Part shown: in pieces, positions 33,170 through 51,853 of the stretch
Layout of the letters: the number at the start of each line of letters is the position of its first letter
How positions within the stretch are numbered: position 1 is the first letter of the stretch
Source: Candidatus Pyrohabitans jungbluthii
GTDB lineage: Archaea > Hydrothermarchaeota > Hydrothermarchaeia > Hydrothermarchaeales > BMS3B
NCBI GenBank assembly: GCA_002010065.2
Contig: MTMD02000006.1
Span: 15,133-79,132, forward strand
Direction of reading: 5' to 3'
DNA: 64,000 nucleotides
Position numbers and translations under genes: made by a program
Notes under the pieces: generated by a model
The model's database searches: none
What the model was told of the DNA's origin: nothing
The model's input: the letters and a program-made list of their open reading frames with translations, nothing else

Positions 33170-33186
33170 CTGACTTTCCTTTTTAA
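33170..33186 (+). promoter_or_regulatory. Late promoter motif, copy 1 (terS)
   Basis: CTGACTTTCCTTTTTAA, 42 nt before ATG 33212. Confidence 0.8.
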
Positions 33187-33211
33187 CCTAAACGAACCTT
33201 GACGAATCTAT

Positions 33212-33643
33212 ATGAACCTTTACAATCCTAAATGCAAGATCTGCCGTAGCGGGCATGCCGACAAAGTTAACCAGATGCTCATCGAAGGCAGACCCTACAG
33301 CGAGATCATCGCCAAGCTTGAGAAGCACATCCCGGGGCTCAGCAAGGCGAACATCACCAACCACAAGCGCCATTTCCCGGTAGTGCCCGAGGCAGTGAAA
33401 GAGTTTCAGAAGCAACTTGAGGAGGGGAAGCGCAAGGTCATTGACGACCTCGAGTTCCTTGAGAAGGTCAAGGCCAAAGCGGATGCTCTGCTTGACATCA
33501 CCAGCGACCCGAGCGACCTTCAGAAGATAACCGCAGCCGCTGTCCAGGCAATGAAGCTCAAGTACGAGATTTCCGGCGACGTCAACAACCCTGTGAAGGA
33601 GCTCCTGGAGGTCCTCTATGCTGAGGACGAAGAAGCTGGCTAA
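33212..33643 (+). CDS. Terminase small subunit (putative)
   Basis: CKIC plus HTH-like N-terminus, overlaps terL. Confidence 0.65.
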   Translation: MNLYNPKCKICRSGHADKVNQMLIEGRPYSEIIAKLEKHIPGLSKANITNHKRHFPVVPEAVKEFQKQLEEGKRKVIDDLEFLEKVKAKADALLDITSDPSDLQKITAAAVQAMKLKYEISGDVNNPVKELLEVLYAEDEEAG

Positions 33644-34952
33644 ACCTCTCAGGGATCCCGTCACCTTTGCAAAAAAGCTGCTTGGCTGGACACCTCACGA
33701 AGCGCAGGAGCAAATCCTCAGGGACAGGGCAAAGAACCTCACAGTCGCAGCAGGACGAAGATTCGGCAAGAGCGAGTGCATGGCAGTCTCCGCGATCCAC
33801 TATGCCATAGCGCACCCTGGAAGCATTCAGTTCATCATCGCCCCAACCTACGACCAGGCACAGATTATCTTTGACACCATCGTCAGGCTGCTTTCCAGGT
33901 CGCCGCTCATTCAGCTGGTGGATAAGGTGGTCTACACTCCCTTCCCGAAGCTCCGCTTTCTTACAGGCTCAATTATTCATGCCCGCTCCGCTGACAAGCC
34001 TCAGAACCTGCGAGGCCATAAGGCGCACCGCATAATCCTCGACGAAGCGGGCTACATTAAGGACGAGGCGGTCACCAACGTAATTGAGCCAATGCTCGCT
34101 GACTATGACGGAGACCTGATCAAGATTGGCACCCCTGCGGGAAGAAACCACTTCTATGACTCATTCATCAGGGGGCTCGAGAGAAATGAGTACTACAGCA
34201 GCTACCAGTTCCCATCCTGGGTAAACCCGCACATCTCCAGGGAATACATAGAGCGCAAGAAGAAAGAATACGGGGAGAACAGCATCCGCTTCCGCACCGA
34301 GTACATGGCGGAGTTCATAGACGACCAGAATGCTGTCTTCCCATGGCGCAGCATTCAGGCGTGCATCGAAGAAGATATAGAGCTCCTCGAGGGTAGGACC
34401 CATGCCAAGCAGCGCTTCGTCTTCGGCGTGGACGTGGCGAAGTACCTCGACTACACCGTAATCATCGGCATAGATATTGCCCAGGAGCCAGCGAAGCTCA
34501 TATACTTTGACCGCTTCCAGCGCCTCCCCTGGGGAGAGATAGCCAGGAGAATCGAGGACATCCATGCAAGATTCTCGCCCCAGGCAATAGTTGTGGACAG
34601 CACTGGCGCCGGCGACCCCTTGCTGGAGATGGTCCAGCACATAGCACGAGGTATAACCATCACGGGTGGCACCGCAATAACTCAGCAGGGAAACATCACC
34701 AAGGTGCCAAAGACAATCCTGGTGGAGAGGTTAGCGGCTGCAATAGACAATCGCAAGGTCATCTTCCCCAACATCCCCGAGCTGATCAACGAGCTCAAGT
34801 ACTTCGAGTACGTCCGCACGAGCTCGGGTAGCCTGAAAATGGAAGCTCACGAAGGCATGCACGACGACTGCGTCATGGCCCTAGCTCTTGCTGTATTTGG
34901 AGCATTCCACGAGCCATCGCTTCCAGACATCGACGAATGGCCCTTCTTCTGA
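33618..34952 (+). CDS. terL: Terminase large subunit
   Basis: GRRFGKS, ILDEA, IGTP, GVDVAKYLDYT, HDDCVMALAL. Confidence 0.95.
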   Translation: MLRTKKLAKPLRDPVTFAKKLLGWTPHEAQEQILRDRAKNLTVAAGRRFGKSECMAVSAIHYAIAHPGSIQFIIAPTYDQAQIIFDTIVRLLSRSPLIQLVDKVVYTPFPKLRFLTGSIIHARSADKPQNLRGHKAHRIILDEAGYIKDEAVTNVIEPMLADYDGDLIKIGTPAGRNHFYDSFIRGLERNEYYSSYQFPSWVNPHISREYIERKKKEYGENSIRFRTEYMAEFIDDQNAVFPWRSIQACIEEDIELLEGRTHAKQRFVFGVDVAKYLDYTVIIGIDIAQEPAKLIYFDRFQRLPWGEIARRIEDIHARFSPQAIVVDSTGAGDPLLEMVQHIARGITITGGTAITQQGNITKVPKTILVERLAAAIDNRKVIFPNIPELINELKYFEYVRTSSGSLKMEAHEGMHDDCVMALALAVFGAFHEPSLPDIDEWPFF

Positions 34953-34965
34953 CTTTGCTTTTTAT
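34949..34965 (+). promoter_or_regulatory. Late promoter motif, copy 2 (portal)
   Basis: CTGACTTTGCTTTTTAT, overlaps the terL TGA. Confidence 0.8.
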
Positions 34966-34999
34966 GCCTTTCCCGCAGAGGGAACTCTGGTGATGTTTC

Positions 35000-36391
35000 A
35001 TGAGCATCTTTGACCTGCTGAAGCCGAAATCTTCGAGAATGGACCTGGCTCTCGCGGAGCTTCTGAAAGGGGTTGCAAAGGCTGCGGATGATAAAATTTA
35101 TAATCCCGACTTTGAGCCAGAGGGCGGCTGGGATAAGTGGTGCGCCTGGGCTGCGAAGCAGGGCAAAATAGCGAGGATGATTAGAAGCTTAGCTAAGAAT
35201 GCAATGGCTTTCGACTTCTCTGGCGATGACGACAAGGCGTTGGAATTGGTGCAGAAGATGCGCCGGCGCACCCACCTTGATCTAATTCTCGTGCTCGCCT
35301 TCAAGGACTGGCTTGAATATGGACGCTGCTTCCTGGAAGTGGTGTGGGAGAAGAAGCGCATCGGGAACAATGTTGTAGAGGACATCATCAAAATCAAGCG
35401 CGTTAACCCGATGACAGTCCGCGTTTTCAGAGACAACGAGGACGATGTGCGTGAGCTCCGGGACTTCCTGAAGCGTCACTTCCCGAATGTGGACAGGAGC
35501 AACATCAAAGAGGGCAGCGGTGACAACATCATAGGCTTCGTGCAGCACTTCAAGAGGGCTGAGGAGGGCAAGGCGGTATTCTTCAAGCCTGAGGAGCTTA
35601 TCTTCATCCCGCGCTATCCCGACTACGACGCCCCCGACGGTGTCAGTCTGCTCAGGGAGAACTACGCCAATATCATGAACAAGCTCGGCACGGAGAAGTA
35701 CCAGGCGATCATGCTCAAGCGCTTCGTGGACCACAAGCACAAGTTTAAAGTTCCTGAACGTTGGTGGCATCGCATTGAGGAACTCCAGAGCAAAATCAAA
35801 AACATGTTGAAAGCGGGCGGTGACCTCTGGATCCCCGAGGGCATGGAGGTTGAAATACTCGAGCCGAAAGGCAATCCCCTAGCGACGATCAAAGCTCAGG
35901 AGCATATAGAGGACCAGGTAATCGCCGGCATGGGCTTCAGCGACAGCTTCACCGAGAGCAAGAGCAGCAACCGCTCTGTTGGTGAGGTGCAGCTCCAGTT
36001 CTTTGAACGCGATATTAGACCAGAGCGCTACATCTTCAAGGTCGTCATCGAGGACAGGATCATAATCCCCTATGTCAGGAAGAAGCTCGGACCCAAAGCG
36101 AAGCCACCGGAGATGGTATTCGAAGACCTCACGCCACGCGATGAGGTGCGCTGGGCTGCGGTGATGGCTTCCTACCTGCCCTACATGACCAAGTCGCAGA
36201 TCAAGCGCCTCTTCGACGAGCTCGGCTACCCAGTGCCAAAAGAGGAGGAAAAAGAGTTCAGCGCAAAGGTGGACCTCGCAACTCAGAAGGGCGTGCCAAA
36301 GCCCGTGCTGACCGGAAGCGTTGACGTCAGAGAAGAGTTCGCGGAAGAAATCCATCGCCTCCGGAAAGAGCTCCTGGAGGTCTTCGACTGA
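35000..36391 (+). CDS. Portal protein
   Basis: Position after terL, size, YGRCFLEV, P.GVSLL, PEGMEVE. Confidence 0.85.
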   Translation: MSIFDLLKPKSSRMDLALAELLKGVAKAADDKIYNPDFEPEGGWDKWCAWAAKQGKIARMIRSLAKNAMAFDFSGDDDKALELVQKMRRRTHLDLILVLAFKDWLEYGRCFLEVVWEKKRIGNNVVEDIIKIKRVNPMTVRVFRDNEDDVRELRDFLKRHFPNVDRSNIKEGSGDNIIGFVQHFKRAEEGKAVFFKPEELIFIPRYPDYDAPDGVSLLRENYANIMNKLGTEKYQAIMLKRFVDHKHKFKVPERWWHRIEELQSKIKNMLKAGGDLWIPEGMEVEILEPKGNPLATIKAQEHIEDQVIAGMGFSDSFTESKSSNRSVGEVQLQFFERDIRPERYIFKVVIEDRIIIPYVRKKLGPKAKPPEMVFEDLTPRDEVRWAAVMASYLPYMTKSQIKRLFDELGYPVPKEEEKEFSAKVDLATQKGVPKPVLTGSVDVREEFAEEIHRLRKELLEVFD

Positions 36392-37666
36392 ATGCAGCTC
36401 TACGATTTCCTCAGCAAGGATGAGGAAGATGCGATCCGTGCCATTGAGGAAGCGCTTCTCAGGAAGACAGCAGAATCAAGGAAGCGCGCGGTTGAAAAGC
36501 TCGCCAAGCTTCTCACCGTCAGCTACTACATCGGCGCAGAGAGGGCGCTCAAAGAAGTTGGCGCTGACGTGCGCATCACCAGCTTGGAGATCAGAGCGCT
36601 CGAGAAGCTCATAGAGCAGGATGTAGCGCCAGCAATAAAAGAGATGTACGAGTTCCTCGAGCGCGACATTAAGAGCGTCATCGAGGAAGGCATCCGGGAG
36701 GGACTTACCTACGACGAAATCTCTGCAAGGCTAAAGGAAAGGCTAAGAACAACCTTCGGCGAGGAGATTCACTTTGACAGGCGTGGAAAGCTAAGGGAAG
36801 AGATCTACATTGACCGCAGAGGCAGGCTCAGAGTCAGGCAGGTTAAAATCACCCGCACAAAGACGCTGAAGCTTGACGACTACGCCGATCTCCTCGCAAG
36901 GACCAACGTAAAGAAAGCCTACGCCCTGGGGCACCGCGAGGGCTACGTCGCCGCTGGCCTGCGAAAGTGGAGGTATCGCAGCGTAGCAGATGAACGCACC
37001 AGGCCGCACCACTTAGCTCTTCACGGCAGAGTATTTGAGGTTGGCACAGCAGAAGAAGAGCTCGCCCTCCGCGTAATGAGCGAGCCCAACTGTAGATGCA
37101 GGCCCTCGCCATACTTCGACGATCCCAAGCTTGACACGCCTCAAGAGGTTTTCGAGCAGGAGAAGAAAAAATGGGCCCAGGAATGGCAGAGAGAGAAGGG
37201 TCTCGATTCTCTTGGGAAGTATCTAGAACCATTCGACAGAAAAGGCTTAGCACCTCCTTCCTATGATGAGCAGCTTAACTACCTCATAGAGAGGTTTAAG
37301 AAAAGCGAAGACATGCGCACCCTCCTTTCCATTACCGGGGAAAGCCCGCAAGCAAAAGCTAAAGAGATCCTTGGAATCTCTCTCAGGCACTCCACATTTC
37401 ACGGTACCGCTTCATCATACAGGCACATGGTGCAGGATGGGAGGAGGTACTCCCTGTCAGATGTTTTCAGCATAAAAAAGAGCCCGGAATGGGTAAGACG
37501 CGATCCTGATACCGGAGAATTTTTATTGCATGGAAAATCTAAAATATATCAGCGCCCAGTTTATATAATATTGACACCTGACAGAAAAATTAAAACTTCA
37601 TTTGTCATTACAAAAAGGAAAGAAGTTGAGAAGCTTAAGATGAGATTTAAAGAGGAGTTGAAATGA
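36392..37666 (+). CDS. MuF/SPP1 gp7-like minor head protein with C-terminal putative toxin domain
   Basis: LARTN...AY..G, WRYRSVADERTRPHHLALHG, EPNCRC, then a ~190-aa extension. Confidence 0.85.
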   Translation: MQLYDFLSKDEEDAIRAIEEALLRKTAESRKRAVEKLAKLLTVSYYIGAERALKEVGADVRITSLEIRALEKLIEQDVAPAIKEMYEFLERDIKSVIEEGIREGLTYDEISARLKERLRTTFGEEIHFDRRGKLREEIYIDRRGRLRVRQVKITRTKTLKLDDYADLLARTNVKKAYALGHREGYVAAGLRKWRYRSVADERTRPHHLALHGRVFEVGTAEEELALRVMSEPNCRCRPSPYFDDPKLDTPQEVFEQEKKKWAQEWQREKGLDSLGKYLEPFDRKGLAPPSYDEQLNYLIERFKKSEDMRTLLSITGESPQAKAKEILGISLRHSTFHGTASSYRHMVQDGRRYSLSDVFSIKKSPEWVRRDPDTGEFLLHGKSKIYQRPVYIILTPDRKIKTSFVITKRKEVEKLKMRFKEELK

Positions 37667-37935
37667 AGAGGCTCCGAATAAGCTACGGGGACGAGCTGCT
37701 CAAAAATCCAGAGAAACGACCTGCAGAAGGCAAAATTAGAGCAGCGTACGTAAACAACAGAACAGGGTTAGTCTTAGGGAGGGGCGACATTGAGGTGGAG
37801 ATCATAAGGGAGAACGGCGCTGATTATATCACCCTTCCCGAGGAGGTATACAGAGAATTGAAACTCACAGATTACGACATGGACTGGTGCTCTGTCTATC
37901 TGAGGGAGGATGGTATCTTAGTAGAGCTTTTCTAG
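37663..37935 (+). CDS. Small protein coupled to MuF (candidate immunity protein)
   Basis: ATGA overlap, 90 aa, acidic C-terminus. Confidence 0.6.
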   Translation: MKRLRISYGDELLKNPEKRPAEGKIRAAYVNNRTGLVLGRGDIEVEIIRENGADYITLPEEVYRELKLTDYDMDWCSVYLREDGILVELF

Positions 37936-37954
37936 GGTTGTAAGAGGGGGTAGT

Positions 37955-38347
37955 ATGGATATTAACATAAAGGATTTGACTTCTCGTAATTTGGTCAATC
38001 ATTTTGTAATTGGCTATTTCGCTCTTTATGTAATCCTTGGCGATCAGTTTATTAATTATAAATTATTGAAGCAGATAGTCTTGGCGATTGTTGCAAGCTA
38101 CTTGTTGTTTATTCCCGCAAGATTAATCGTCCGCATTCGTTGGGGAAGATGGGAAGAAAATCAAGAGGCGTACACGTACTATCACTTTAGAATATTCGCG
38201 GTTCTTCTCTCTCTTACTATAATCAAATTTATTGATATCATGAGAGGACTATGGCCGTGGTACAAACTGATTTTAGTTTGGTTGTTATCTTTTACAGCAG
38301 ACTGGTTAACATGGTGGCTTTACAGAAAAGATACCACCGACTGCTAA
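37955..38347 (+). CDS. AT-rich four-TM membrane protein (moron)
   Basis: Hydrophobic helices and AT-rich codons. Confidence 0.6.
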   Translation: MDINIKDLTSRNLVNHFVIGYFALYVILGDQFINYKLLKQIVLAIVASYLLFIPARLIVRIRWGRWEENQEAYTYYHFRIFAVLLSLTIIKFIDIMRGLWPWYKLILVWLLSFTADWLTWWLYRKDTTDC

Positions 38348-38363
38348 ATTCTACAACCACTAT

Positions 38364-38380
38364 CTGACTTTCCTTTTTAA
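38364..38380 (+). promoter_or_regulatory. Late promoter motif, copy 3 (protease)
   Basis: CTGACTTTCCTTTTTAA, 41 nt before ATG 38405. Confidence 0.8.
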
Positions 38381-38404
38381 GCTACTTCTCCTCAGCCTTT
38401 ATTC

Positions 38405-39763
38405 ATGAGCGACGAGGTTACAGTAGACTTCACTGTAAGGGTTGCCGATTGCTTGGGCTTTTGTGCAGAGAAAGGCGACTTCGTCCCAGTGGTTGACCTG
38501 AAGAACGAGGACACCTCGAGGGGACTAAAGCGCAGGATCATCGCTGTCACCGAAGGCACACACAACGGCATACAGTTCCGGGCTAATGAAATTGAGGCGA
38601 TGGTCCGGCGTGCCATTGAGGTGAAAGAGCAGGAGAATAGGAAGTACTTCAAGGTGCCTCTTGTTCTGGACCACAGCGATAGCTTCCTGGACAAAGTCGG
38701 AGCCACCTACAACCTCGAGTTCGGCAAGGACCCTGAGAAGGGGCTGCAGGCGGCAATAGCAGACGTGGAGTTCTGGAACACCACGCCCATGCTCAGAGAG
38801 GTTGCAGAGCGCGTGAAGCTAGACCCTGAGAACACCTTCTTCTCCGTCAGGGTGAGGGGCAGAATAGAGCAGGACGCAGAAGGGGAGTACCTTGCTGACA
38901 TGACCCTGGTGCACATCGCCGTGGTAAACGAGCCCGCTGATCCCAATGCCAGGCTGATCTCCAATTCCAGAGGTGCCGATATTTCCCGGGAAATATTCGA
39001 CTTTGGCGTGGTGCCGAGCAACCCGCCAAACTACCGCAAGGCGAGCGAGGACACACCCTGGGAAAAGCCTCGCCTTGAGGACTTCACCAGCAAGCGTTGG
39101 GATGAGCTGAGCGATGCGGAGAAGCGCAGAATAGCCCAGCACTTCGCTTGGGCTCCGAAGATGCCGCCCAACGCATTCACAGACCTCAAGTTGCCGCATC
39201 ACCGCCCTAGCGACGGCGCCGTGGTGTGGAACGGTGTTCGCGCAGCAATGGCAGCACTCATGGGCGCCCGTGGTGGCGTTGACATTCCCGCGGCAGATAA
39301 GCGCAAGGTGTACAACCATCTCGCAGCTCACTACAGAGAATTCGAAAAAGAGCCTCCAGAGGCAAACTTCGCCAAATCTGACTTTGCTTTAAATACAGAA
39401 GGCTCGGAACTCAACAACAAAGGAGGTCTAAGCATGGAAGAAATAGAGAAAATCAAGACAGACCTCAAGAAAGAGTACGAGCAGAAGCTCGAGGAGGTCA
39501 AGCAGGAGTTCGCAGCGAAGATCAAGAAAATCGAAGAGCTGACCGAGCTCCGCGCGGAGATCATCGCGATTTACCCTGAGGTTGACAGGGATTTCCTGAA
39601 GTCGCTCAACAGGGAGCAGCTGGAGAAGTACAAGGCGGACCTCAAGAAGCGCATGGTGGAAACCCAGAGCACCGAGAAGAGCAGGGACAACGCAGCCAAA
39701 GCCGAGGACCCGTTTGAGCTTGCCGAGAAGTACTTCGGCCCGGTTGAAGTGGGGGTGAGCTAA
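38405..39763 (+). CDS. Prohead protease, middle domain and scaffold fusion
   Basis: PLVLDH, FFSV, HIAVVNEPADPNA; middle KLPHH...GARGG domain; C-terminal coiled coil. Confidence 0.75.
   Translation: MSDEVTVDFTVRVADCLGFCAEKGDFVPVVDLKNEDTSRGLKRRIIAVTEGTHNGIQFRANEIEAMVRRAIEVKEQENRKYFKVPLVLDHSDSFLDKVGATYNLEFGKDPEKGLQAAIADVEFWNTTPMLREVAERVKLDPENTFFSVRVRGRIEQDAEGEYLADMTLVHIAVVNEPADPNARLISNSRGADISREIFDFGVVPSNPPNYRKASEDTPWEKPRLEDFTSKRWDELSDAEKRRIAQHFAWAPKMPPNAFTDLKLPHHRPSDGAVVWNGVRAAMAALMGARGGVDIPAADKRKVYNHLAAHYREFEKEPPEANFAKSDFALNTEGSELNNKGGLSMEEIEKIKTDLKKEYEQKLEEVKQEFAAKIKKIEELTELRAEIIAIYPEVDRDFLKSLNREQLEKYKADLKKRMVETQSTEKSRDNAAKAEDPFELAEKYFGPVEVGVS
39378..39395 (+). promoter_or_regulatory. Late promoter motif, copy 4 (intragenic, scaffold)
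   Basis: CTGACTTTGCTTTAAATA inside the protease CDS. Confidence 0.75.
39434..39763 (+). CDS. Nested in-frame scaffold protein (109 aa)
   Basis: AGGAGGT at 39421-27, in-frame ATG 39434, coiled coil. Confidence 0.75.
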   Translation: MEEIEKIKTDLKKEYEQKLEEVKQEFAAKIKKIEELTELRAEIIAIYPEVDRDFLKSLNREQLEKYKADLKKRMVETQSTEKSRDNAAKAEDPFELAEKYFGPVEVGVS

Positions 39764-39764
39764 G

Positions 39765-40235
39765 ATGGTGGAGACTGCAGCTTCACCTGTAAGGGGGTAC
39801 CTCCCTGAAGGTATCCTGAGCGCGAAGGTGGATACCACGCAGACCAAGGACGCCGACGGCTACTACTACAAGGCTGGGGATCTCGTGGAGATCGTTGCCG
39901 ACGAAACCGTGGGCAAGGCAACCACCTCTGGTAAGGCGATAGGCGTGCTCGTTTCGAGCATCCACGAGAGCTCTGCACCCGAAGGGCTTGACTCCAGGCA
40001 CCGCGTTTCCGTGCTCACGAAGTTCAGGGCTATCGTTGAGTTCACCGCGGAGGGTGCGATCAACGCTGGAGACGCCGTTACCACGAGCACAACCAACCCA
40101 GGCAGAGTGAAGGCGCTGCCCCCAGAGACTATCGACGAAGGCGGCACCGCAACGCACACCATAGACTACCGCGACCCCATCGGCATCTGCTGGAAGGGCG
40201 GAGCCGATGGTAGCAAGGTGCTCGTGCTGATATGA
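39765..40235 (+). CDS. Head decoration/cement protein
   Basis: Lies between scaffold and MCP; AGDLV...AIGV...AINAGDAV...IG. Confidence 0.65.
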   Translation: MVETAASPVRGYLPEGILSAKVDTTQTKDADGYYYKAGDLVEIVADETVGKATTSGKAIGVLVSSIHESSAPEGLDSRHRVSVLTKFRAIVEFTAEGAINAGDAVTTSTTNPGRVKALPPETIDEGGTATHTIDYRDPIGICWKGGADGSKVLVLI

Positions 40236-40236
40236 G

Positions 40237-41124
40237 GTGGTGGAGATGACGACCGCAGCTTTCACACAGAAGGATTTAGCATACCAGGACAGCCCCGCCC
40301 TTAAGCCTGAAGTCATAAGGGCGAGGGTCAAGCAGGTCTACGAAAAGACGCTGATAGGCAGGCAGCTTCTGAGTGGACCCGAGCGCATCGAGGGTGATTC
40401 CGTCTCCTGGATAGAAGAGGGTGACATCGTAGGCAACGTGGACTGGATCAGCGAGCTGGGCGGTTTCCCAAAGCTGGACTTCAAGTATGGCAAGAAGGCC
40501 AAGCCTATCCGGCCCTACGGTGCGTATTTCGACGTTACGCTGATGGAGCGCAGATTCTCCCGCGTCCAGACTGTGGGCAGAAAGATCAATCGCAGCGTTT
40601 ACAAGATGCGCCGCTTTGAGGACGATCTGATCTTCAACGCCATGCTCAATGCAACCGGTATAAACACATTCGACGGTACCAACTGGACTGACACCACGGC
40701 AGGGGACCCCATCGCAGACCTCGAGCATGCCAAGACGCTCATCTACGACGCTACGGATGGGGGTGAGGCTACCGACGTCATCATGAGCCCCATAATGTAC
40801 GAGCGCCTCACCAAGTTCGACGTGGTACGCAACAACAACTACCTCCAGGCCCAGGTGGTCAAGACCGGTGTAATCCCTGGCCTCGCAGGGCTCAACATAA
40901 TCAAGGATAAGGCCGTTGATCCCAACGACGACGGCGTGGTGCTCGTGATCCGCAGAAAGGACATAGGCTTTATGGCTGAGAGCATACCCCTGACTACGGT
41001 CAATGTCTCCGGTGAGAACCTCGGCAACCCGATGATAGACAACCGCTACTTCAACTTCGCCATGGCAGAGCCAGTCATCGACAGCCCAGAGTACATCTGC
41101 AAGATCACCGGCTTGAAGGCGTAA
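40237..41124 (+). CDS. Major capsid protein (HK97 fold)
   Basis: Position, ISELGGFP, WTD...DPIADL, DVIMSP. Confidence 0.85.
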   Translation: MVEMTTAAFTQKDLAYQDSPALKPEVIRARVKQVYEKTLIGRQLLSGPERIEGDSVSWIEEGDIVGNVDWISELGGFPKLDFKYGKKAKPIRPYGAYFDVTLMERRFSRVQTVGRKINRSVYKMRRFEDDLIFNAMLNATGINTFDGTNWTDTTAGDPIADLEHAKTLIYDATDGGEATDVIMSPIMYERLTKFDVVRNNNYLQAQVVKTGVIPGLAGLNIIKDKAVDPNDDGVVLVIRRKDIGFMAESIPLTTVNVSGENLGNPMIDNRYFNFAMAEPVIDSPEYICKITGLKA

Positions 41125-41171
41125 GCGCCTCTCTTTCCATTTTCCGGGAAATATGTTTTGAGGTGATGTAG

Positions 41172-41459
41172 ATGCCAAAGAATGAACTGCTTGTGGAAAT
41201 CAGAGCCGCACACTTCGAGAGCAAGCACCTGCGAGGCAAGAGGGGCGACAGGGGCAAGATACCAGCGGACGAGAAGCTTCAGACGCCTGCGGAGCGCGAT
41301 GCATTGAAGAACGGCAACCTCGTCGTTATCGACCTCGAGCCGGTGGAGAGCAAGCCAGCACCTGAGGAGAAGCCCAAGAAAAAGGGAAAGGGCAAGAAGG
41401 CTGAGGAAAGCAAGCCAAAGGGACCAGAGAAAAGCGAACCTGAAGAAAACGCCGAGTAG
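41172..41459 (+). CDS. Small head-associated protein with a K/E/P-rich tail
   Basis: ORF immediately after the MCP, with RBS. Confidence 0.6.
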   Translation: MPKNELLVEIRAAHFESKHLRGKRGDRGKIPADEKLQTPAERDALKNGNLVVIDLEPVESKPAPEEKPKKKGKGKKAEESKPKGPEKSEPEENAE

Positions 41460-41468
41460 GGAGGGGAA

Positions 41469-41789
41469 ATGGAAGAGTCCCTCCTCATGAAGTACCTCGA
41501 CAGCAAGTTCGAGGACCAGCAGAGGCAGATTTCATCCATCTGCAAGAAGCTAGACAAGCTAATCGAAGATAACAGAAATGACCACGTGCAGCTTTACAGC
41601 CGCATTGGGGTGCTCGAGCGCTCTATCACTGAGCTCAGTCAGACAACCACAGCAATCGAAGATCATGAACAGAGGATCCGCGCTCTGGAAACATTCAAGA
41701 ATAGAATAATCGGGGCTCTCGTGGTAATTCCCGCAGGCGTTAGCACAATGGTGGTGAAGCTTAAAGACCTGTTCTCTGGGGGGAACTGA
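41469..41789 (+). CDS. Coiled-coil protein with C-terminal TM helix (XhlA/holin-like)
   Basis: DHEQRIRALE followed by IIGALVVIPAGVSTMVV. Confidence 0.55.
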   Translation: MEESLLMKYLDSKFEDQQRQISSICKKLDKLIEDNRNDHVQLYSRIGVLERSITELSQTTTAIEDHEQRIRALETFKNRIIGALVVIPAGVSTMVVKLKDLFSGGN

Positions 41790-41790
41790 C

Positions 41791-42159
41791 TTGGCAGCCA
41801 CTATCGACGACGTGAGGGCACAGATTGGCGACACCGACCCAGACAACTACATCTTCGGCGACCCTGAGATCCAGAGCGCTCTGGACGAAGCTCAAGCAAT
41901 CATAGAGGCGGAAGGGGGAAATGTTAGCAGTATACTGGGCAAGAGGGCGCAGAAGCTGCTCGCCGCCGCCTTCCTGGTTGACATGAAGACCGGGAACATA
42001 AAAGAGCGCAACGTCAAAACAATCCGCGAGGGCGATGCCTCGCTGGACTTTGAAGACCTCTCTGCGAAGGCTAAGGAGTGGCGCGCCGAAGCTGAGAGGC
42101 TGATTGACAAGCTCAGACCTCTGCCCTTTGGTGTGACCAACGATTTCTTCAGTGAGTGA
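41791..42159 (+). CDS. Head-tail adaptor
   Basis: VRAQIGDTD....F.D.EI pattern and position. Confidence 0.7.
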   Translation: MAATIDDVRAQIGDTDPDNYIFGDPEIQSALDEAQAIIEAEGGNVSSILGKRAQKLLAAAFLVDMKTGNIKERNVKTIREGDASLDFEDLSAKAKEWRAEAERLIDKLRPLPFGVTNDFFSE

Positions 42160-43063: not shown

Positions 43064-43606
43064 ATGCTCCCTTCGAGTCTAAAGAAAGAGATCTTCAAAA
43101 GCCTGCCCAAGCAGGTAACAATAGGCAACGACACCCTCAGCATATACGTTGACTACGCTGACAGAGTGAACGTCTCAGAGAAGCTTCGCAGCTATCCCGT
43201 GGTGCTCACTTTGCACTACTTCGGTGACAGGAGGAGCGATGTGGAGAGCCCCCTCAATGACATCCTGGAGATAACCAGCGACGGCGTGGATGTGATCTAC
43301 ACCAAGGGGGAGAGGGAGCGGATCACGCTGCGCATCAACATCCACGCAAAGGACCACAGGGGCGCAGAGTTCCACCACAGGAGCGATGTTGTAGACGCAG
43401 TGGTTGACGAGCTGCTTCTGTGGTACCTCAAGCTAAACATCCCCGGTATAGCCACGCGGGGGAGAAGCGAAGTTGCTGCACTTGACTTCCTCGCAGGCGA
43501 CGGAATAGCGAGGCGGAGGATAGACTTCTACCTCGCCTATACGCTGAGCTACCAGGAGACGGTCACCACCATTGAGACCATTAACTACGAGGTCCAGCAG
43601 GGCTGA
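43064..43606 (+). CDS. Tail terminator (putative)
   Basis: Position immediately before the sheath gene. Confidence 0.55.
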   Translation: MLPSSLKKEIFKSLPKQVTIGNDTLSIYVDYADRVNVSEKLRSYPVVLTLHYFGDRRSDVESPLNDILEITSDGVDVIYTKGERERITLRINIHAKDHRGAEFHHRSDVVDAVVDELLLWYLKLNIPGIATRGRSEVAALDFLAGDGIARRRIDFYLAYTLSYQETVTTIETINYEVQQG

Positions 43607-43610: not shown

Positions 43611-43628
43611 CTGACTTTCCTTTTTAAA
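43611..43628 (+). promoter_or_regulatory. Late promoter motif, copy 6 (sheath)
   Basis: CTGACTTTCCTTTTTAAA. Confidence 0.8.
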
Positions 43629-45494: not shown

Positions 45495-45673
45495 AATCTA
45501 AGTTTCATCTTTACTTTTTAGCTGAACAATTCGGCGACTTAGAATTGGAAAGGGTCAATAAGCTGCCCATTCACCGTGTTTTAGAGTGGCTTGAATATTT
45601 CAAGCAGAAGCATGAAAAAGTTAAGGCAATTACTATTGATAGCTCAGAGGGACACACGTTCAGGTTTTCTTAG
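45183..45673 (+). CDS. Tail assembly chaperone, G-T-like -1 frameshift product
   Basis: -1 frame open for 60 codons from 45491 (VESKFHLYFLAEQFG...EWLEYF...FS*). Confidence 0.75.
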
Positions 45674-46216
45674 CTATTCATTATTGTAAAATTGTGCTAT
45701 TTTTTGTAAATGATATTCTGAAGGTTGTTTACATTCTGATTTGTCTTTCCAATTTTGAGAAATTTCACGCCTACACACATCTTCCAAAATCAATTGAATT
45801 GCCTCGAATGCTGTCATACCTTCAGACATTATTATACGATCATCTTTCTTTAGGGTCCCATATTCCCCTCCTCTAGGTTCCCACTTGTAGGGTATGGTAG
45901 CCCCATTACCACACACTAAAACCATTGAAATACTTTCAAACATTTTTTCAGGTATATATTTTCTTGATCGAGGCGATCTCCCCACTGGATGGAAGACTAT
46001 TTCGAGTTTCGTATTGGTAAAAAATTTATTGACTATTTTATTTGATTCATAATCAAAAAACTCAAAGTTCTCAAGTACTATCTTTTTCTCGTCGTAAAAA
46101 AAACCTCTAATGGATAAATTCATATAGACTTCTTTCCATCGTGTTTCAATTTCGTTCCTTAATTTTTCAACTATCTTATCAATCTCTTTAATAACAAAAC
46201 TTAAGTGTCTACTCAT
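45674..46216 (-). CDS. AT-rich hypothetical protein (cassette)
   Basis: 180-aa ORF overlapping 46209..46964. Confidence 0.65.
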   Translation of the reverse strand: MSRHLSFVIKEIDKIVEKLRNEIETRWKEVYMNLSIRGFFYDEKKIVLENFEFFDYESNKIVNKFFTNTKLEIVFHPVGRSPRSRKYIPEKMFESISMVLVCGNGATIPYKWEPRGGEYGTLKKDDRIIMSEGMTAFEAIQLILEDVCRREISQNWKDKSECKQPSEYHLQKIAQFYNNE

Positions 46217-46964
46217 TAAACCTCCCCAATTCTACAGAATAGAAATATTCTACTAGTAACCCTGGACTCACATTTCTGTTTCTTCTCCAACTTGTAATAA
46301 TTTTATTCTTAAGTCTATCTGTATTTGTTGAGGTAATCCTGGTTGGGGAGATAGGTAGATACCAACCATTATTTATAGCAGTTTCTATAACTTTAGGAGC
46401 CTCCTCATAAAGCCAATCTATTGTTTTTATTACATAGTTTTTATCTCTTCTATGAATAAAGAACCTATATATCTTCTCCATAGCAAATACCCAATCAAAA
46501 ATTTCGTCATATAATCCAGCAATTATTATCGACTTAAGTGTTGGGATTTTAGGCTTTATTTCTAATTCTGGAAAGAATCTTATAATGGAATCATCAATAT
46601 ATAATAAATGGGCAAATTTTATAACATACTCAAATCCATAAATATGAGCATAATCTTTGAATAAGTTTTCGTAATGCAATTTTGTAATATGGTCATACAT
46701 GTTGTATTTAGATCCCATGGTCTTAACTGTGATCTCAATGTAATCAGAATATTTTATAATAAAAGGTTCCATCTCTTTTAACATTTTGTCTACTTTGTTT
46801 AAAGTCTCTTCTTCGAATATTTCAAGTTCATTGTATTTAAAGAATGGCAGTGCTTTCCATTCTCTAATAAATTCCTCTTTACTGGGTCTGCCAAAAGATG
46901 GTCCAGAAGGGTGATACACACCAATTTTTGGATGATAAACAGAAACAACATTAACGGACGCCAT
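46209..46964 (-). CDS. AT-rich hypothetical protein (cassette)
   Basis: 251-aa ORF with GGAGG RBS. Confidence 0.7.
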   Translation of the reverse strand: MASVNVVSVYHPKIGVYHPSGPSFGRPSKEEFIREWKALPFFKYNELEIFEEETLNKVDKMLKEMEPFIIKYSDYIEITVKTMGSKYNMYDHITKLHYENLFKDYAHIYGFEYVIKFAHLLYIDDSIIRFFPELEIKPKIPTLKSIIIAGLYDEIFDWVFAMEKIYRFFIHRRDKNYVIKTIDWLYEEAPKVIETAINNGWYLPISPTRITSTNTDRLKNKIITSWRRNRNVSPGLLVEYFYSVELGRFNE

Positions 46965-47211
46965 GTATTAGCCTCCAACCTTACATCATTAATTACCTCA
47001 CCTTTTTGCGCCCACCCAACTATATCATATACCTATATCTCTATCATCTATCATAACTTATACCCATATCACCGTATATGTTTATTGTATATTGTATATA
47101 CCTATACTTTCGTATAGTTACACCAACTCTTTGATATATAAAATTTATTGTTCGGTTGTCTGCAAAGCCTTGGCAATCACGTTGATGTTGCAGTCCTGGG
47201 CATCGGGGTTA

Positions 47212-47835
47212 TTACTGATATGCTTTATCCACATCTTCCTCTAGCTCTTTCAGTCTCTTTTTTAATCTCTCATATTCCTCCTTATCAATACTCCTAGCTT
47301 TTTTTAATTCTTGTATTTCTTGATATATCTCATCCAATTTCGCCTCAATATTCGCCAACCTGTCTGTGCGATAACTTGTATAATAAATTGGTAGTTTCTC
47401 ATATTGTAGCTGTAATTTTTCTATTTTGGGTAAGACTTTGCTTAAATTCTGATGGACTTCTGCGAATTGCTGAGCGATTTTCAAAGTTTTTAGAACAGGA
47501 ATTTGAAGCTCTCTATATAGAGATATTGTTTTAGAGATTGACGAAATAGCTGCCATAGTATTCGCCAAACTTTTTTCTAATCTATCAAGCTCAGGGTATT
47601 TTTCATGATATTCACTCAAAATTTGTTTTGCTTTTTCTTTTATTGAAATGTCATCTGATTTTGAGAGTTCCTTTGCTATGAAGTAAGCTTCAATCGGGAG
47701 TGTATCTAAATGTCGCTTTATCAAGTCTAAGCATTCCAAATGTGTATCCTCATCTTTTGCTTTCTCCTTGATTTCTTCCATAATTTTTTGAGCATCTTTT
47801 GAAGAGACCAACTTTTCTGACATATTTTTCACCAC
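47212..47835 (-). CDS. AT-rich helical/coiled-coil protein (cassette)
   Basis: 207-aa ORF. Confidence 0.65.
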   Translation of the reverse strand: MVKNMSEKLVSSKDAQKIMEEIKEKAKDEDTHLECLDLIKRHLDTLPIEAYFIAKELSKSDDISIKEKAKQILSEYHEKYPELDRLEKSLANTMAAISSISKTISLYRELQIPVLKTLKIAQQFAEVHQNLSKVLPKIEKLQLQYEKLPIYYTSYRTDRLANIEAKLDEIYQEIQELKKARSIDKEEYERLKKRLKELEEDVDKAYQ

Positions 47836-48056
47836 ACTTTAAGTATAAGAGCCACAGTTAGAATGATTATAAAAACTACACTTCCCGCAATCCCTGAACT
47901 TTTGCTAATTTTAAATAAACCCGCAAAATATACTCCAATTAATCCGTATGCCACCGCCCACAGTATTAGAGTATTTGATGTAAGTGCATCCACTATTGTG
48001 ATTATTACCAACCATAGCAGAATAAAACCAACTGTGTATCCAGTAGCTACCCCCAT
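47829..48056 (-). CDS. Three-TM membrane protein (cassette)
   Basis: 75 aa, almost entirely hydrophobic. Confidence 0.55.
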   Translation of the reverse strand: MGVATGYTVGFILLWLVIITIVDALTSNTLILWAVAYGLIGVYFAGLFKISKSSGIAGSVVFIIILTVALILKVW

Positions 48057-48072
48057 GACTTTATTTTATAAA
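48055..48072 (+). promoter_or_regulatory. Late promoter motif, copy 7 (tape measure; degenerate first base)
   Basis: ATGACTTTATTTTATAAA, 41 nt before ATG 48096. Confidence 0.65.
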
Positions 48073-48095
48073 TAGGGCCTATAAAAAAGTTTTCT

Positions 48096-49844
48096 ATGCC
48101 TTCAGTAAGAGACCTCTTTCTTAGGATCGGACTTCATGACACCGCATCTGGGAAGATGTTGAAAATAATGAAAAGTTCTGATGCAGTGCATAAACAATTC
48201 CAGAAAGTGGGTAGTAGCGCGGAAAAATTAGGCAAGCAAATGGGGAGTGTAGCTAAATTCTTTAGAGAAATGGATACAATTGAAAAAGACATTATTAGAG
48301 TATCTCAGCAACATAATAGGGCAGTCAAAAAGCTTGCCCAAGCTTATATAAATCTAAAATGGAAAGTTAAACAGTATAAAAGGGAGGTATTAGCACCAGA
48401 ACTTAGAAAGGTAGGGCGGTTTGCAAGGGAACATGCGCAACAACTAAAAGCAATGGGAGTTGCAGCTACCGCTACTATGAGTGGGCTACTCTGGAAGGCA
48501 CAAACGTACGAGAAATCTTTAGCAACTCTGCGGGCGCTCACTGCTGATAATGCAGAAGAGTATGAATATTATCTATCTTTGATTGAAAAAAATAAGGGAG
48601 GGCTTTTTTCGAAGTCTGATATCGCAGCAACTCTCGCCTATGCTAAGGCCAACCGTCTCACCAGAGAAGAACTTGAGACCCTTCTTCCCTATGCAAAATC
48701 TGCTGCAGCAATGTTTGGTGAGGACTTACAACTTGCCTTCATTGCCATGGTAAGGGCGATGAAATATGGAGAGGCGGAACTTGCAGAGAGAATCGGATTA
48801 CAGCTAAGAGAGAACGCAGTCAACCACATCGCCCTTAAACTCTATGGCAAAAGGCTGTCACAACTTAATGCAGAGCAGAAGCAAAGGGTCATAATGCTTG
48901 CAATCCAGGAGCAGATGGCAGATAAGTTAGGGAAGGAAAATGAGATAATGAAGGAAAACATCGGTAAGATGATGGCCGCACGTGCAGCGATAGATGACCT
49001 CTCTACTGAACTTGGGAAAACCTTATATCCAGCTGTAGGTAAAGCTGCTTCTATTCTTGCACAGCTCCTGCGCACTCTTGATAAAGTGCCATTGCTAAAA
49101 GAGTTCGCCGCAGCGGGGCTTATATTAGCCTCTGCGTTGGGCGCTCTAGGCATCATTGCGGGTCCAGTTAGCACCGCCTTGGGCGTTCTAGGCATCAAAG
49201 CTTTTTGGGCTTCAGTTCAGACGAACGGGCTAACTGTAGCTCTTAAAACTAATCGAATTGTCATGCTTGCATCTACAGCGGCTACGTTTATCTACTCTAA
49301 AGCCCTAAGTGCCGCCAATATCGCAACCAAATTATTTGGCGGCGCTCTGAATTTGCTGAGAGTTGCTGCTATTGGTTTGTGGACAGCTTTAGGACCAATT
49401 GGTATCGGGCTACTGGCATTAGGAGCAATTCTAACAACACTGTGGTTTAAGTCAGATAAATTCAGAGCCATAGTAACCTCATTGGCCAGAGGATTGAGAG
49501 AATATTTGGGCAAAGCTGCTGAATGGGTAAGCTCTAAGATTCAGTGGTTGATTGATGTTCTTACAAACGCTTATGAGAGAATCAAACCATTTATCAGAAT
49601 AGCAAGCTATCTCATGCCAGGGATAGGCGGGGTGAAATTGGCAAGGGAACTCGCAGCTGGCGGATTGGTTCCCTCGCCGAGAGAGCTGGTAGCTTCCACC
49701 ACGACAGTGACCAGGACAACCACAGTGAACCAGAGAAAAATAGAGATCAAGCCTGGTGCGGTGGTCATCAAAGGCGTAAGCGATCCCGAGAAAGCAGCGG
49801 ATTTAGCCATAAAGAAGATACAGAGACTCCTCGCATATAGCTAG
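48096..49844 (+). CDS. Tape measure protein
   Basis: Ala/Gly-rich and helical, GEAELAERIG, LWFKSDKFRAIV; position. Confidence 0.85.
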   Translation: MPSVRDLFLRIGLHDTASGKMLKIMKSSDAVHKQFQKVGSSAEKLGKQMGSVAKFFREMDTIEKDIIRVSQQHNRAVKKLAQAYINLKWKVKQYKREVLAPELRKVGRFAREHAQQLKAMGVAATATMSGLLWKAQTYEKSLATLRALTADNAEEYEYYLSLIEKNKGGLFSKSDIAATLAYAKANRLTREELETLLPYAKSAAAMFGEDLQLAFIAMVRAMKYGEAELAERIGLQLRENAVNHIALKLYGKRLSQLNAEQKQRVIMLAIQEQMADKLGKENEIMKENIGKMMAARAAIDDLSTELGKTLYPAVGKAASILAQLLRTLDKVPLLKEFAAAGLILASALGALGIIAGPVSTALGVLGIKAFWASVQTNGLTVALKTNRIVMLASTAATFIYSKALSAANIATKLFGGALNLLRVAAIGLWTALGPIGIGLLALGAILTTLWFKSDKFRAIVTSLARGLREYLGKAAEWVSSKIQWLIDVLTNAYERIKPFIRIASYLMPGIGGVKLARELAAGGLVPSPRELVASTTTVTRTTTVNQRKIEIKPGAVVIKGVSDPEKAADLAIKKIQRLLAYS

Positions 49845-49863: not shown

Positions 49864-49880
49864 CTGACTTCGATTTATAA
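49864..49880 (+). promoter_or_regulatory. Late promoter motif, copy 8
   Basis: CTGACTTCGATTTATAA, 43 nt before ATG 49907. Confidence 0.75.
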
Positions 49881-49906
49881 CCTCCCGTCTCTCTGATTTT
49901 TTTATC

Positions 49907-50437
49907 ATGCCAGAGATCATAAAGCTCGGCGGCGTGGAACTCACGGCCACGCAGGTCCTCGACCTCAGCCAAAGCGCACAGGTACCAGAACACCGCACTG
50001 AGCGCCAGTTCTCAGTAGCAGATCACATCATTCTCGAGCCGAAGGAGTTCTCTATTTCTGTCATGCTCTTTAAGGATAGCAAGGAACTTGAAGCGCTCAG
50101 GAAGCTCTACGAGTCCAAGCAGCTGGTGAGGTTTGAATCAGAGCTGGAAGACCTCGACGATATGGTGATTACCAGCTTTGACCTCTCGCCGGCGGGAGTA
50201 AACGCATACAAAGCAGAGATCCGCATCAAGCAGATCAGGCGAGCAGAGCTCAAGACTCGAGTGGTCAAATTTGAGGACCCAGCCACGAGTGCGGAGATAG
50301 AAACAGGAGAAGAGCCTCCTGGAGGCGATACAGCCGTATCTCCTAAAGAGATCTCATACCAAAACAAGCCGCAGAAAGAGCAGGGGAAGAACTGGCTTGA
50401 GAGTCTAATCTCATGGGTGGGTGGTCTCTTTGCCTGA
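49907..50437 (+). CDS. Tail tube initiator/Dit-like baseplate protein
   Basis: PEH.TE....VADH...EP, DMVITS, I.IKQIR. Confidence 0.7.
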   Translation: MPEIIKLGGVELTATQVLDLSQSAQVPEHRTERQFSVADHIILEPKEFSISVMLFKDSKELEALRKLYESKQLVRFESELEDLDDMVITSFDLSPAGVNAYKAEIRIKQIRRAELKTRVVKFEDPATSAEIETGEEPPGGDTAVSPKEISYQNKPQKEQGKNWLESLISWVGGLFA

Positions 50438-50720
50438 TGGAGTCCTGCCATTCGAATCTAACTTAGGGTTGCCGCAGAAGCAGCGGGTGAAGATAGCAGA
50501 CAAAGCCTACCAGCTCTATTATTCTTGGAACTCCCTAGGCGAATTTGTCAGGCTTAAAATCGTCAGAGTAGAGGACGGCGCGGTTGTATTCAACTCCAAG
50601 CTGGTGGAGCTCAATCCCTACGAAGTGAGAGACCCTCAGAACTACGAGCTGCTCTTTACCCTTATGCCATACTCGCTGAGCAAGGAGAACGTCGAGGCAT
50701 GGGTGTTCTGGGATGAATAG
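50421..50720 (+). CDS. Small baseplate protein (plug-like)
   Basis: Q...I....Y.L...WN pattern and position. Confidence 0.55.
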   Translation: MVSLPDGVLPFESNLGLPQKQRVKIADKAYQLYYSWNSLGEFVRLKIVRVEDGAVVFNSKLVELNPYEVRDPQNYELLFTLMPYSLSKENVEAWVFWDE

Positions 50721-51525
50721 CACTTTCTGGAACCGCTACATAGCTATTGAAGTTGGCGACGTGGTAATCACCAGCGAGCAGCTTGACATAGAGTTCGTGG
50801 TAGAGAACAGCACCGGCGAGGAGGCAGGCTCTGCCGAGATAACCATCTACAACTTGGCTGAGACTACGAAACAGAAGCTGAAGCCAAGCGAGCGGATCAC
50901 ACTGAAGGCGGGGTATGCAGAGGACTACGGCATCATTTTCTCCGGAGTGATCAAAGAAGTAGTGGACGAGCTCAAGGGCGCAGATGTGGCAACTCAGATA
51001 TTTGCCCAGGACGACACCGCCAATCTCCTTACAACAGAGGTAAAGCTCACCGTTCCCAGGGGCACAACTTTTGAGGAGGTCGTGGAGAAGCTCTTCGAGT
51101 TTGCAGGCGTGCCAGTGGGTAGGGTGGAGCACATAGGGCTAAAGTTCACCCAAACATGGACCTCGGGGAAAAAGAGCATATCGGAGCTGCTCAGCTACCT
51201 AGCTAAAGAGATAGAGGAGCTAAGCGGGAAGAGGTTTAAACACTACGTCAAGAACGGCATGGGTTTCTTCGTTGAGGAGAACACGAGGCATGAGGAAGCT
51301 TTCATACTCACGGCTGAGACCGGCTTGCTGGAAGTTCAGAAGATCAGAAAGGAGAATGGTGAAGCGGACTACAGGCTAAGGACCCTGATGCTCTGGAAGA
51401 TCATGCAGGATTCAATCATTGATCTGGACAGCATAAAGGCGACGGGGCTATTCAGAGTGGTGAGCTACAGGAAAATAGCACGTGGGGAGGAGTACTACTG
51501 CGAACTCGAGGTGAAGGCGGTATGA
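50713..51525 (+). CDS. Baseplate hub protein
   Basis: AEITIYNL, L.AGY...G.IFSG, L.AETGLL. Confidence 0.75.
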   Translation: MNSTFWNRYIAIEVGDVVITSEQLDIEFVVENSTGEEAGSAEITIYNLAETTKQKLKPSERITLKAGYAEDYGIIFSGVIKEVVDELKGADVATQIFAQDDTANLLTTEVKLTVPRGTTFEEVVEKLFEFAGVPVGRVEHIGLKFTQTWTSGKKSISELLSYLAKEIEELSGKRFKHYVKNGMGFFVEENTRHEEAFILTAETGLLEVQKIRKENGEADYRLRTLMLWKIMQDSIIDLDSIKATGLFRVVSYRKIARGEEYYCELEVKAV

Positions 51526-51839
51526 TCCCAAAGCTCATCGATGAAAGGATAGAGAGGAAGCTCAGGGGCATATACACGGCCTGCACCGCAGTGGTTACTC
51601 TTGTAAGTGGCAACTCATGCAACCTTCGCCTTGAGGACGGCGAGGATACCGAGCTCTTCGACGTGCCCTTCACCGAGAACCTCAAATACCTCCACGACCA
51701 CGATGCCCAGGGCGCGGTAATCAGCAAAGCTCTTCGAGAAGGGGACAGGGTGCTCGTTGTCTTCTCGAAGTATCCCCTCACAGGAAAATCGGCTCGCAGA
51801 TTTGACATTAACGACGCCATAGTGGTGGCTAAGCTCTGA
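51522..51839 (+). CDS. Short spike-like (gp138/gpV N-terminal OB-fold) protein
   Basis: LFDVPF...L.EGD.VLVVFS...RRFDINDAI. Confidence 0.65.
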   Translation: MIPKLIDERIERKLRGIYTACTAVVTLVSGNSCNLRLEDGEDTELFDVPFTENLKYLHDHDAQGAVISKALREGDRVLVVFSKYPLTGKSARRFDINDAIVVAKL

Positions 51840-51853
51840 CTTTGGTTTATAAA
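51836..51853 (+). promoter_or_regulatory. Late promoter motif, copy 9
   Basis: CTGACTTTGGTTTATAAA, overlaps the upstream TGA, 42 nt before ATG 51878. Confidence 0.8.

Follow-up and report, generated by a model that had tools for sequence, protein, structure and literature searches.

A repeated element in the late module

The window analysed here is a stretch of 64,000 nucleotides (nt) of contig MTMD02000006.1 (assembly GCA_002010065.2, positions 15,133 to 79,132 of the forward strand) from the archaeon Candidatus Pyrohabitans jungbluthii. It contains a 38.8-kb provirus of the head-tailed type, integrated at a tRNA-His gene. The late module of this provirus encodes a large terminase, a Mu-like portal, Mu F-like, cement-like, major capsid and sheath-like proteins, head-closure and Neck1-like proteins, a tape measure, a baseplate hub, and Dit-like, gp25-like, baseplate J and Mu gp48-like proteins. 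These products indicate that the virus is contractile-tailed. A short element, with the consensus (C/A)TGACTT, three bases, then TTTWWA, recurs nine times among these genes and most likely constitutes a late-gene promoter common to related uncultivated viruses.

The pattern TGACTTNNNTTTWWA matches the window exactly at nine places, each on the + strand and between 33170 and 51853. They are listed below as predicted late promoters P1 to P9, with the offset in nt from the first base of the element to the ATG (ORF, open reading frame; aa, amino acids).

33170-33187, + strand: P1, predicted late promoter; ATG at 33212 (offset 42), opening a 143-aa ORF followed by the large terminase gene (33618-34952)
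34949-34966, + strand: P2, predicted late promoter; its TGA is the terminase stop codon; ATG at 35000 (offset 51) with GGTGA, opening the Mu-like portal gene, then a Mu F-like gene
38364-38381, + strand: P3, predicted late promoter; ATG at 38405 (offset 41), opening a 452-aa head-module ORF
39378-39395, + strand: P4, predicted late promoter within ORF 38405-39763; in-frame internal ATG at 39434 (offset 56) with GGAGG; cement-like and major capsid genes downstream
43024-43041, + strand: P5, predicted late promoter; its TGA terminates the Neck1-like gene (42518-43027); ATG at 43064 (offset 40), opening a 180-aa ORF and in frame with a longer GTG-initiated ORF
43611-43628, + strand: P6, predicted late promoter; ATG at 43678 (offset 67) with GGAGG, opening the sheath-like gene (DUF3383)
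48055-48072, + strand: P7, predicted late promoter with A as first base; ATG at 48096 (offset 41), opening the tape-measure-like gene
49864-49881, + strand: P8, predicted late promoter; ATG at 49907 (offset 43), opening the Dit-like tail gene; baseplate hub downstream
51836-51853, + strand: P9, predicted late promoter; its TGA is the stop codon of ORF 51522-51839; ATG at 51878 (offset 42), opening the gp25-like sheath-initiator gene; baseplate J and fibre genes further downstream, as far as 57772

Each element contains an ordinary 8-bp TATA box, TTTWWAWN, at motif positions 11-18, and TTTWWA is present in all nine. The three bases that separate it from the (C)TGACTT block are poorly conserved but their number is fixed. 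TGAC and the TATA box are invariant across the nine sites, while a run of five T residues occurs in five of them and is missing from the other four. Positions -5, -4 and -3 relative to the TATA box read T, T and T (C in one site), so the viral sites lack the transcription factor B recognition element (BRE), a purine-rich sequence directly upstream of the TATA box.

Only two further matches to TGACTTNNNTTTWWA appear in the window when one mismatch is allowed, both in the host flanks (6905 and 14245). Shuffled sequences are expected to yield 0.84 matches at up to one mismatch, and none of 100 shuffles reached 11. The bare hexamer TGACTT is not enriched (25 found against 35.7 expected), and the signal is therefore the composite element, in which the block and the TATA box stand at a fixed spacing. 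An earlier note on this DNA had described nine such CTGACTT-TATA sites, all on the + strand before virion genes, and all nine were found where it had placed them, with the late-module annotation in agreement. The details it gave are also borne out: overlap of the TGA with an upstream stop codon at 34949, 43024 and 51836, one site (39378) inside a coding sequence, a sole first-base deviant over a divergent start (the A at 48055), six sites 40-43 nt before an ATG, and three leading to starts with a ribosome-binding site (RBS), here GGAGG or GGTGA.

The first base of P7 is A rather than C because it is shared with the start codon of the divergent ORF 47829-48056. A second, oppositely oriented TATA-like box lies at ~48078-48089, and the interval 48056-48096 resembles a back-to-back promoter pair. 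The tail module contains a low-GC island here (45545-48096; 32% against ~50%) with four minus-strand ORFs of no known family, two of which are also held by L014, a near relative from a metagenome. The 452-aa ORF downstream of P3 had no match in family and solved-structure searches.

Geometry of the predicted promoters and their transcripts

Archaeal promoters carry a T/A-rich TATA box centred ~26-27 nt before the transcription start. At six of the nine sites the TATA box lies ~27 nt ahead of the start codon. Given its place at motif positions 11-18, this spacing puts the predicted transcription start on the A of the ATG. On the best reading of the sequence, most of these predicted promoters would thus give leaderless mRNAs: at the six sites the host RNA polymerase would start at or next to that A, and the other three promoters (P2, P4 and P6) would give short leaders that include an RBS. 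Among the 12 sequencing runs listed for 33100-43099, none is recorded as RNA.

The same geometry holds beyond the window. After removal of identical 60-nt contexts, the provirus and 12 related stretches provide 50 unique sites, to which the window and eight of the stretches contribute. All 50 lie on the gene strand (a count made before duplicate removal gave 47 of 47), and in 40 an ATG follows at offset 39-43; the corresponding share of 20,000 random positions is 9.1%.

P4 lies within a coding sequence and would give a nested in-frame C-terminal product, predicted to be 109 aa long, from ATG 39434. This product may be scaffold-like, judging by its position and nested start only. The 18 bases of the internal site are identical in six of seven distinct sequences, while the encoded proteins are ~57% identical; the exception, L014, has a single base change. 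None of the six motif codons shows a synonymous change, against eight of the 11 flanking codons for conserved residues (Fisher p = 0.009). In a second clade of relatives the internal site stands 41 nt before the nested ATG, in leaderless spacing, where the start in the window uses an RBS. The invariance of the internal site and its leaderless spacing in the second clade show that selection acts on the DNA sequence of the internal element itself, and tie the element to the downstream start.

Host promoters and other genomes of the phylum

The host assembly (15 contigs, 1,993,079 bases) contains nine copies of TGACTTNNNTTTWWA, all identical with the nine provirus sites. A 21-nt weight matrix built from the 50 viral sites gave, at 18 bits or more, nine hits in the provirus, none in the host and three in the reversed control. 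Lowering the threshold never brought the host count above that of the control. The reduced core ACTTTNNTTTWWA showed no excess either, with eight host matches against 14 in the reversed control. These scans indicate that the host has no regulon bearing the element. The comparison of provirus with host genome that the earlier note had named as a check thus found no host excess at any stringency, and its remark that the motif was not seen in host flanks or early genes extends to exact copies genome-wide. The other 37 genomes of the phylum have 0-5 TGACTTNNNTTTWWA matches each, close to the control read backwards, except for G003, in which three of five matches fall within a related provirus.

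Host promoters differ from the viral sites at the BRE position. Among 198 host TTTWWA sites in leaderless geometry, equally far ahead of an ATG that opens an ORF of 100 codons or more, A occupies 41, 52 and 61% of positions -5, -4 and -3, respectively. Runs of A also precede the TATA box of many of the 44 host tRNA genes, read by eye. The viral element therefore takes the position of the BRE, as had been proposed, immediately ahead of the TATA box, a position rich in A in host promoters. Two early promoters had been offered for contrast. The one near 22671 is inside the provirus and does have an A-rich block before its TATA box; the one at 19410 is outside the provirus, the left end of which is at 21171-21190. 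Many host tRNA promoters carry GGTTA or GTTA ~8-12 nt past the TATA box, maybe a promoter-proximal element, which was not seen in the viral late promoters.

Conservation in related viruses

Relatives were located through their capsid or terminase proteins and not through the motif. The capsid protein had no match among 50,697 phage records, and in genome_contigs the terminase found only distant bacterial matches. Uncultivated relatives with capsid proteins 75-93% identical carry the element, among them L014 (capsid 93% identical) and the second clade (L010-L019 and L026-L028; capsid 75-77% and terminase 52% identical). In the 39-kb record G040, 14-15 sites occur, each on the gene strand and none ahead of the small-terminase gene; the early part (9.6 kb) contains no gene-strand site and one relaxed match on the opposite strand. 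G038 has ten sites forward and none in reverse, and the partial related provirus of G003 has three to four copies. One short sequence is thus repeated before late genes and kept in related viruses, as is the case for HF2-type late repeats. We infer promoter activity and late timing, and we are highly confident that the nine elements are a real, conserved and virus-specific family of predicted late promoters.

The exact 18-mer of the internal site occurs in 11 contigs of IMG/VR, seven of which are clade members; the other four have one copy each, possibly by chance. More distant viruses, linked to the window by a zinc-finger protein described below, carry variants of the element: YTRACTTTTCTTTATA in G045, where YTAACTTTTCTTTATA predominates, and CMGACTTTYYTTTATA in G046. 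No G045 variant precedes the terminase gene, and 11 of them are on the gene strand with one on the opposite strand; in G046 five are on the gene strand and two opposite. The CTG prefix is thus younger than the core, which consists of ACTTT plus the TATA box. G045 (L117-L119) is a complete 49-kb genome with terminal repeats and a completeness of 100 by the estimate in its record. It has the zinc-finger pair, the terminase and some head genes in common with the window, and would make a good reference genome for the wider virus group.

Some boundaries of homology coincide with the element. The block of nucleotide homology with L014 (33167-45194) begins exactly at P1, and the segment just before it, 32195-33167, is an insert not present in L014. 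The block shared with G003 (38363-42514) begins exactly at P3. Late elements may therefore double as joints between modules. G003:C2 (L008, L009), from a genome of the same family as the host, shares sequence at the DNA level only over 35564-37176 and 38363-42514. Its related provirus is without the 5' part of the portal gene and is cut by the contig end, and is probably a remnant or mosaic.

A candidate reader of the element

Four early-region products had been put forward in the earlier note as factors for these promoters: a triple winged helix-turn-helix (wHTH) protein (26235), a zinc-ribbon protein at 27219 (ORF 27212), a helix-turn-helix (HTH) protein (30335) and an XPB-like helicase (28783). 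For none of them did tblastn or phmmer find a homologue in related viruses bearing the motif. The window proteins from 21702-30507 found nothing in the early part of G040 (no tblastn match at E<=1e-3, no phmmer match at E<=1), and the triple wHTH protein has no relative in viral_contigs. The complete genome G045 is without homologues of all four; its only matches in the early region of the window are the 68-aa wHTH protein (28453), ORF 24641 and, weakly, ORF 22303, and it also shares the integrase. The earlier interpretation therefore stands as regards a virus-specific, conserved element at the BRE position with leaderless geometry, and is not supported as regards its candidate factors. For the alternative TFB-like factor that the earlier note raised, the provirus contig has no TFB or TBP gene.

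By conservation and position, two other small genes are better candidates, although unproven:

31908-32243, + strand: candidate reader, a zinc-finger protein of 111 aa with four invariant cysteines (C-x4-C ... C-x3-C)
31757-31987, + strand: small Cys-rich ORF, conserved, directly upstream of and overlapping the zinc-finger gene

Homologues of the zinc-finger protein are found in motif-bearing relatives wherever the sequence covers that part. The zinc-finger and Cys-rich genes are neighbours in all clades examined and, besides the structural genes, are what every clade has in common. The window and G045 both have the pair immediately ahead of the terminase genes; the remaining clades have it between head and tail genes. 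In G040 it is accompanied by a homologue of the small membrane protein 30902-31102. Together with a small membrane protein, the two are the only products of genes ahead of the late module to have homologues in the other clades.

The zinc-finger family comprises 73 clusters among 1.8 billion representatives and, of 38 genomes from the phylum, one contains it. An additional N-terminal part, for which the model shows three strands and a helix (predicted local distance difference test score, pLDDT, 89), is present in many members. The form in the window has no such part and carries a basic C-terminal helix instead. The family profile aligns upstream of ATG 31908, through one TGA, over 31848-32156 (G000:C6:46980-47288), and the window gene may be an N-terminally shortened form overlapping the Cys-rich ORF. 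Feature matches of the protein in the Atlas to MYM-type clusters reach 0.87-0.88, under the 0.9 level. Neither Pfam zf-FCS (PF06467) nor Ogr_Delta (PF04606) is listed for it, even at E<=5, and both were rejected as assignments. Ten longer family members checked for fusions contained no informative domain; one distant fused member has a sub-threshold Ogr_Delta match (E 8e-4).

Taking the promoter family as given, we lean slightly towards a virus-encoded reader of the element. Were it virus-encoded, identification with the zinc-finger protein is tentative and would not be an even bet, on the pattern of conservation; DNA binding by this protein is a guess.

Proposed mechanism and alternative explanations

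The BRE is absent from these promoters and the block that replaces it is conserved base for base, which suggests that they are weak by themselves and activated by a factor. The number of copies (50), their fixed register with the TATA box, their absence from the host and the selection seen at the nucleotide level lead to a related conclusion: we infer a reader other than the usual contact between BRE and TFB. In the mechanism we propose, the invariant (C)TGACTT would fill the BRE position with pyrimidines where host promoters have A, so that host TBP and TFB by themselves would use the promoters poorly. Activation would then come from a sequence-specific factor, most likely viral, sitting beside TBP. 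With nine promoters, the 24.6-kb module for packaging, head, tail and baseplate (33212-57772) would be divided into nine units, with the P4 unit, starting inside a gene, serving the nested scaffold-like product. The best candidate for the factor would be the Cys4 zinc-finger protein, perhaps together with its Cys-rich neighbour. We consider it likely that these are late promoters requiring a sequence-specific, most probably viral, factor at the BRE position.

A stronger form of this proposal is that the virus encodes a promoter-specificity factor of its own for the archaeal RNA polymerase, with the Cys4 zinc protein binding CTGACTT at the BRE position, alone or with its Cys-rich neighbour. The bound protein would replace the contact between BRE and TFB, or recruit TFB, and so create a private class of late promoters. 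We regard this as doubtful. If true, the virus would have an archaeal equivalent of the late activators or late sigma factors of phages; a search of the literature, where sources were partly available, found no virus-encoded late switch of this kind for archaeal tailed viruses.

Several observations weigh against an early viral activator, or against the zinc-finger protein in that role. In most relatives the zinc-finger gene is inside the late module, with its stop codon formed by the TGA of a late element, which fits a late-expressed protein better than an early switch. The protein has nothing significant in Pfam, PHROGs or NCBIfam, and two AlphaFold models of it (pLDDT 77 and 89) have no Foldseek match at E<=0.001 in PDB or BFVD. 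G003 has elements and no detected zinc-finger gene, its provirus being partial and interrupted by the contig end. Nor do motif bases 1-3 simply track zinc-finger identity: the window and the G040 clade share the CTG prefix with zinc-finger proteins 42-47% identical, whereas the G045 protein is 58% identical over the match and the prefix there is YTA. The failure to find homologues of the early proteins rests mainly on G045, a genome with the variant motif, most relatives being fragments and the early region of G040 possibly incomplete. Finally, the class II repeats of HF2 are active in uninfected cells, in the available excerpts of that study, so a viral activator need not be concluded here (PMC8707807).

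That last point bears directly on the view that host machinery alone reads the promoters, either through one TFB paralogue or through TBP on a strong TATA box, the block being simply the virus's optimal promoter and timing being set by a repressor, antisense RNA or genome copy number. The host does have two TFB genes (PF00382, contigs C15 and C2) beside one TBP gene (PF00352, C8), neither profile finding a gene on the provirus contig C6 in a search of the whole assembly. HF2 class II repeats, as far as the excerpts of that study go, drive a reporter without viral genes (PMC8707807), and no early regulator is common to the motif-keeping clades. Yet a host reader of CTGACTT-TATA would imply some host promoters of this kind, and none was found at any stringency; the other 37 genomes of the phylum stay at the control level, save for G003, and the positions that are A-rich in the host are replaced by T in the viral sites. 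We therefore consider a host-only reader unlikely.

It is improbable that CTGACTT is instead an operator, at which a viral repressor occludes TFB and TBP and keeps the late promoters silent in the lysogen. Such a model would be in keeping with known archaeal virus regulators, which in the accessible part of one review mostly repress by overlapping the BRE or the start, as do F55 and SvtR (PMC5569661). The element overlaps the BRE position too, and the provirus encodes several wHTH and ribbon-helix-helix (RHH)-like proteins. Repression leaves unexplained why every copy is without an A-rich BRE, however, and the asymmetric block contains neither the dyad nor the tandem repeat used by RHH and wHTH dimers. 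The wHTH and RHH-like proteins are, moreover, not conserved in relatives with the identical block.

That the elements are mainly terminators or recombination boundaries between modules is very improbable: the five-T runs in five of nine sites, the overlap with three upstream stop codons and the two homology blocks that begin at elements (33167 for L014, 38363 for G003) agree with such a role, but four sites lack the run while TGAC and the TATA box are invariant, neither termination nor recombination calls for a fixed distance to the ATG or a strict strand bias, and one copy lies inside a gene ahead of a nested start. Termination as sole function, named in the earlier note as a refuter, was rejected on the ground that the T-runs are not conserved.

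Relation to known systems

Temperate bacteriophages have late activators such as C of Mu and Ogr of P2, the latter a small Cys4 zinc protein, which work with the bacterial machinery. The logic proposed here is alike, with several late promoters in a morphogenesis module each carrying one upstream site for a small viral activator, and the head module of the provirus is itself Mu-like in its portal, Mu F and gp48-like matches. No sequence relationship to Ogr exists, the window protein not matching Ogr_Delta. To our knowledge, little is understood of the timing of gene expression in archaeal viruses. According to the part of the review available, repressors from crenarchaeal viruses account for most of the regulators studied so far (PMC5569661).

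The closest likeness is to the class II intergenic repeats of HF2 and other haloferacalesviruses. In the excerpts available, these are 29-bp sequences that acted as promoters in reporter assays, without viral genes and also in reverse (PMC8707807). Like the present element, they are a repeated short sequence with an AT-rich promoter motif before morphogenesis genes, with sequence and position kept among related viruses. The likeness drawn here is one of description. The HF2 authors, in the same excerpts, propose sequence-specific virus factors and name CxxC zinc-finger proteins (PMC8707807). The conserved part of the present element is, by contrast, a block of 7 bp at the BRE position, separated from the TATA box by a fixed 3 bp; the element is one-stranded, has leaderless geometry and is known from sequence alone.

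Poor BREs compensated by an upstream factor that recruits TFB or TBP have likewise been proposed, in the portions of the papers available, for TFB-RF1 of Pyrococcus furiosus (PMC5937170), EarA at fla of Methanococcus maripaludis (PMC5512572) and Ptr2 (PMC5569661). These factors belong to the host and control single operons there, and their binding sites, defined by experiment, lie upstream of the BRE; the present block overlaps the BRE position itself and occurs in nine copies in one virus. A virus-specific cis element on core promoters is also described, in partial views of the sources, for the rudiviruses SIRV1 and SIRV2, namely the GTC element, and the host activator Sta1 belongs to the same system (PMC5569661, PMC1635249). 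Those viruses are crenarchaeal and, unlike the present one, not tailed.

Virus-specific late repeats (HF2), a rudivirus promoter element and activation of weak-BRE host promoters were thus already known, so far as these sources go. New here are the invariant block at the BRE position with its fixed spacing, not found in the rest of the host genome, the selection visible within coding sequence, and a specific conserved candidate protein. A literature search found no description of the element or of promoters of the present virus group. The word 'promoter' does not occur in the available text of one provirus survey (PMC13573593), whose supplementary tables may list the present provirus. Activation at the BRE position could be studied concretely with this element and its one small conserved candidate protein, and in metagenomes the element could mark late transcription units and membership in this uncultivated virus clade.

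Other features of the provirus

The integration at the tRNA-His gene is delimited by the following features.

21171-21190, strand not assigned: left attachment repeat, a 20-nt exact copy of 59935-59954 (family D13)
58632-59840, - strand: tyrosine integrase gene, adjoining the right attachment repeat
59935-59954, strand not assigned: right attachment repeat, inside the tRNA-His gene (59936-60010, - strand) and beside the integrase gene

The XPB/Rad25-like helicase (28783-30318) scores under the family cut-off (103 bits against 610), and the 48-aa HTH ORF (30335-30481) is next to it. Between 27780 and 28018, a palindromic 21-nt sequence (GGGTAATACCC..GGTATTAC) is present three times in the gap before ORF 27996-28451 and the wHTH gene 28453-28659; these repeats look like operators or an origin. 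At 22640-22725, four to five copies of RGAACTT surround a canonical early promoter with its TATA box near 22675. The divergent genes 22303-22485 (- strand) and the RHH-like ORF 22740-22961 (+ strand) flank this interval, which is possibly a lysis-lysogeny switch region.

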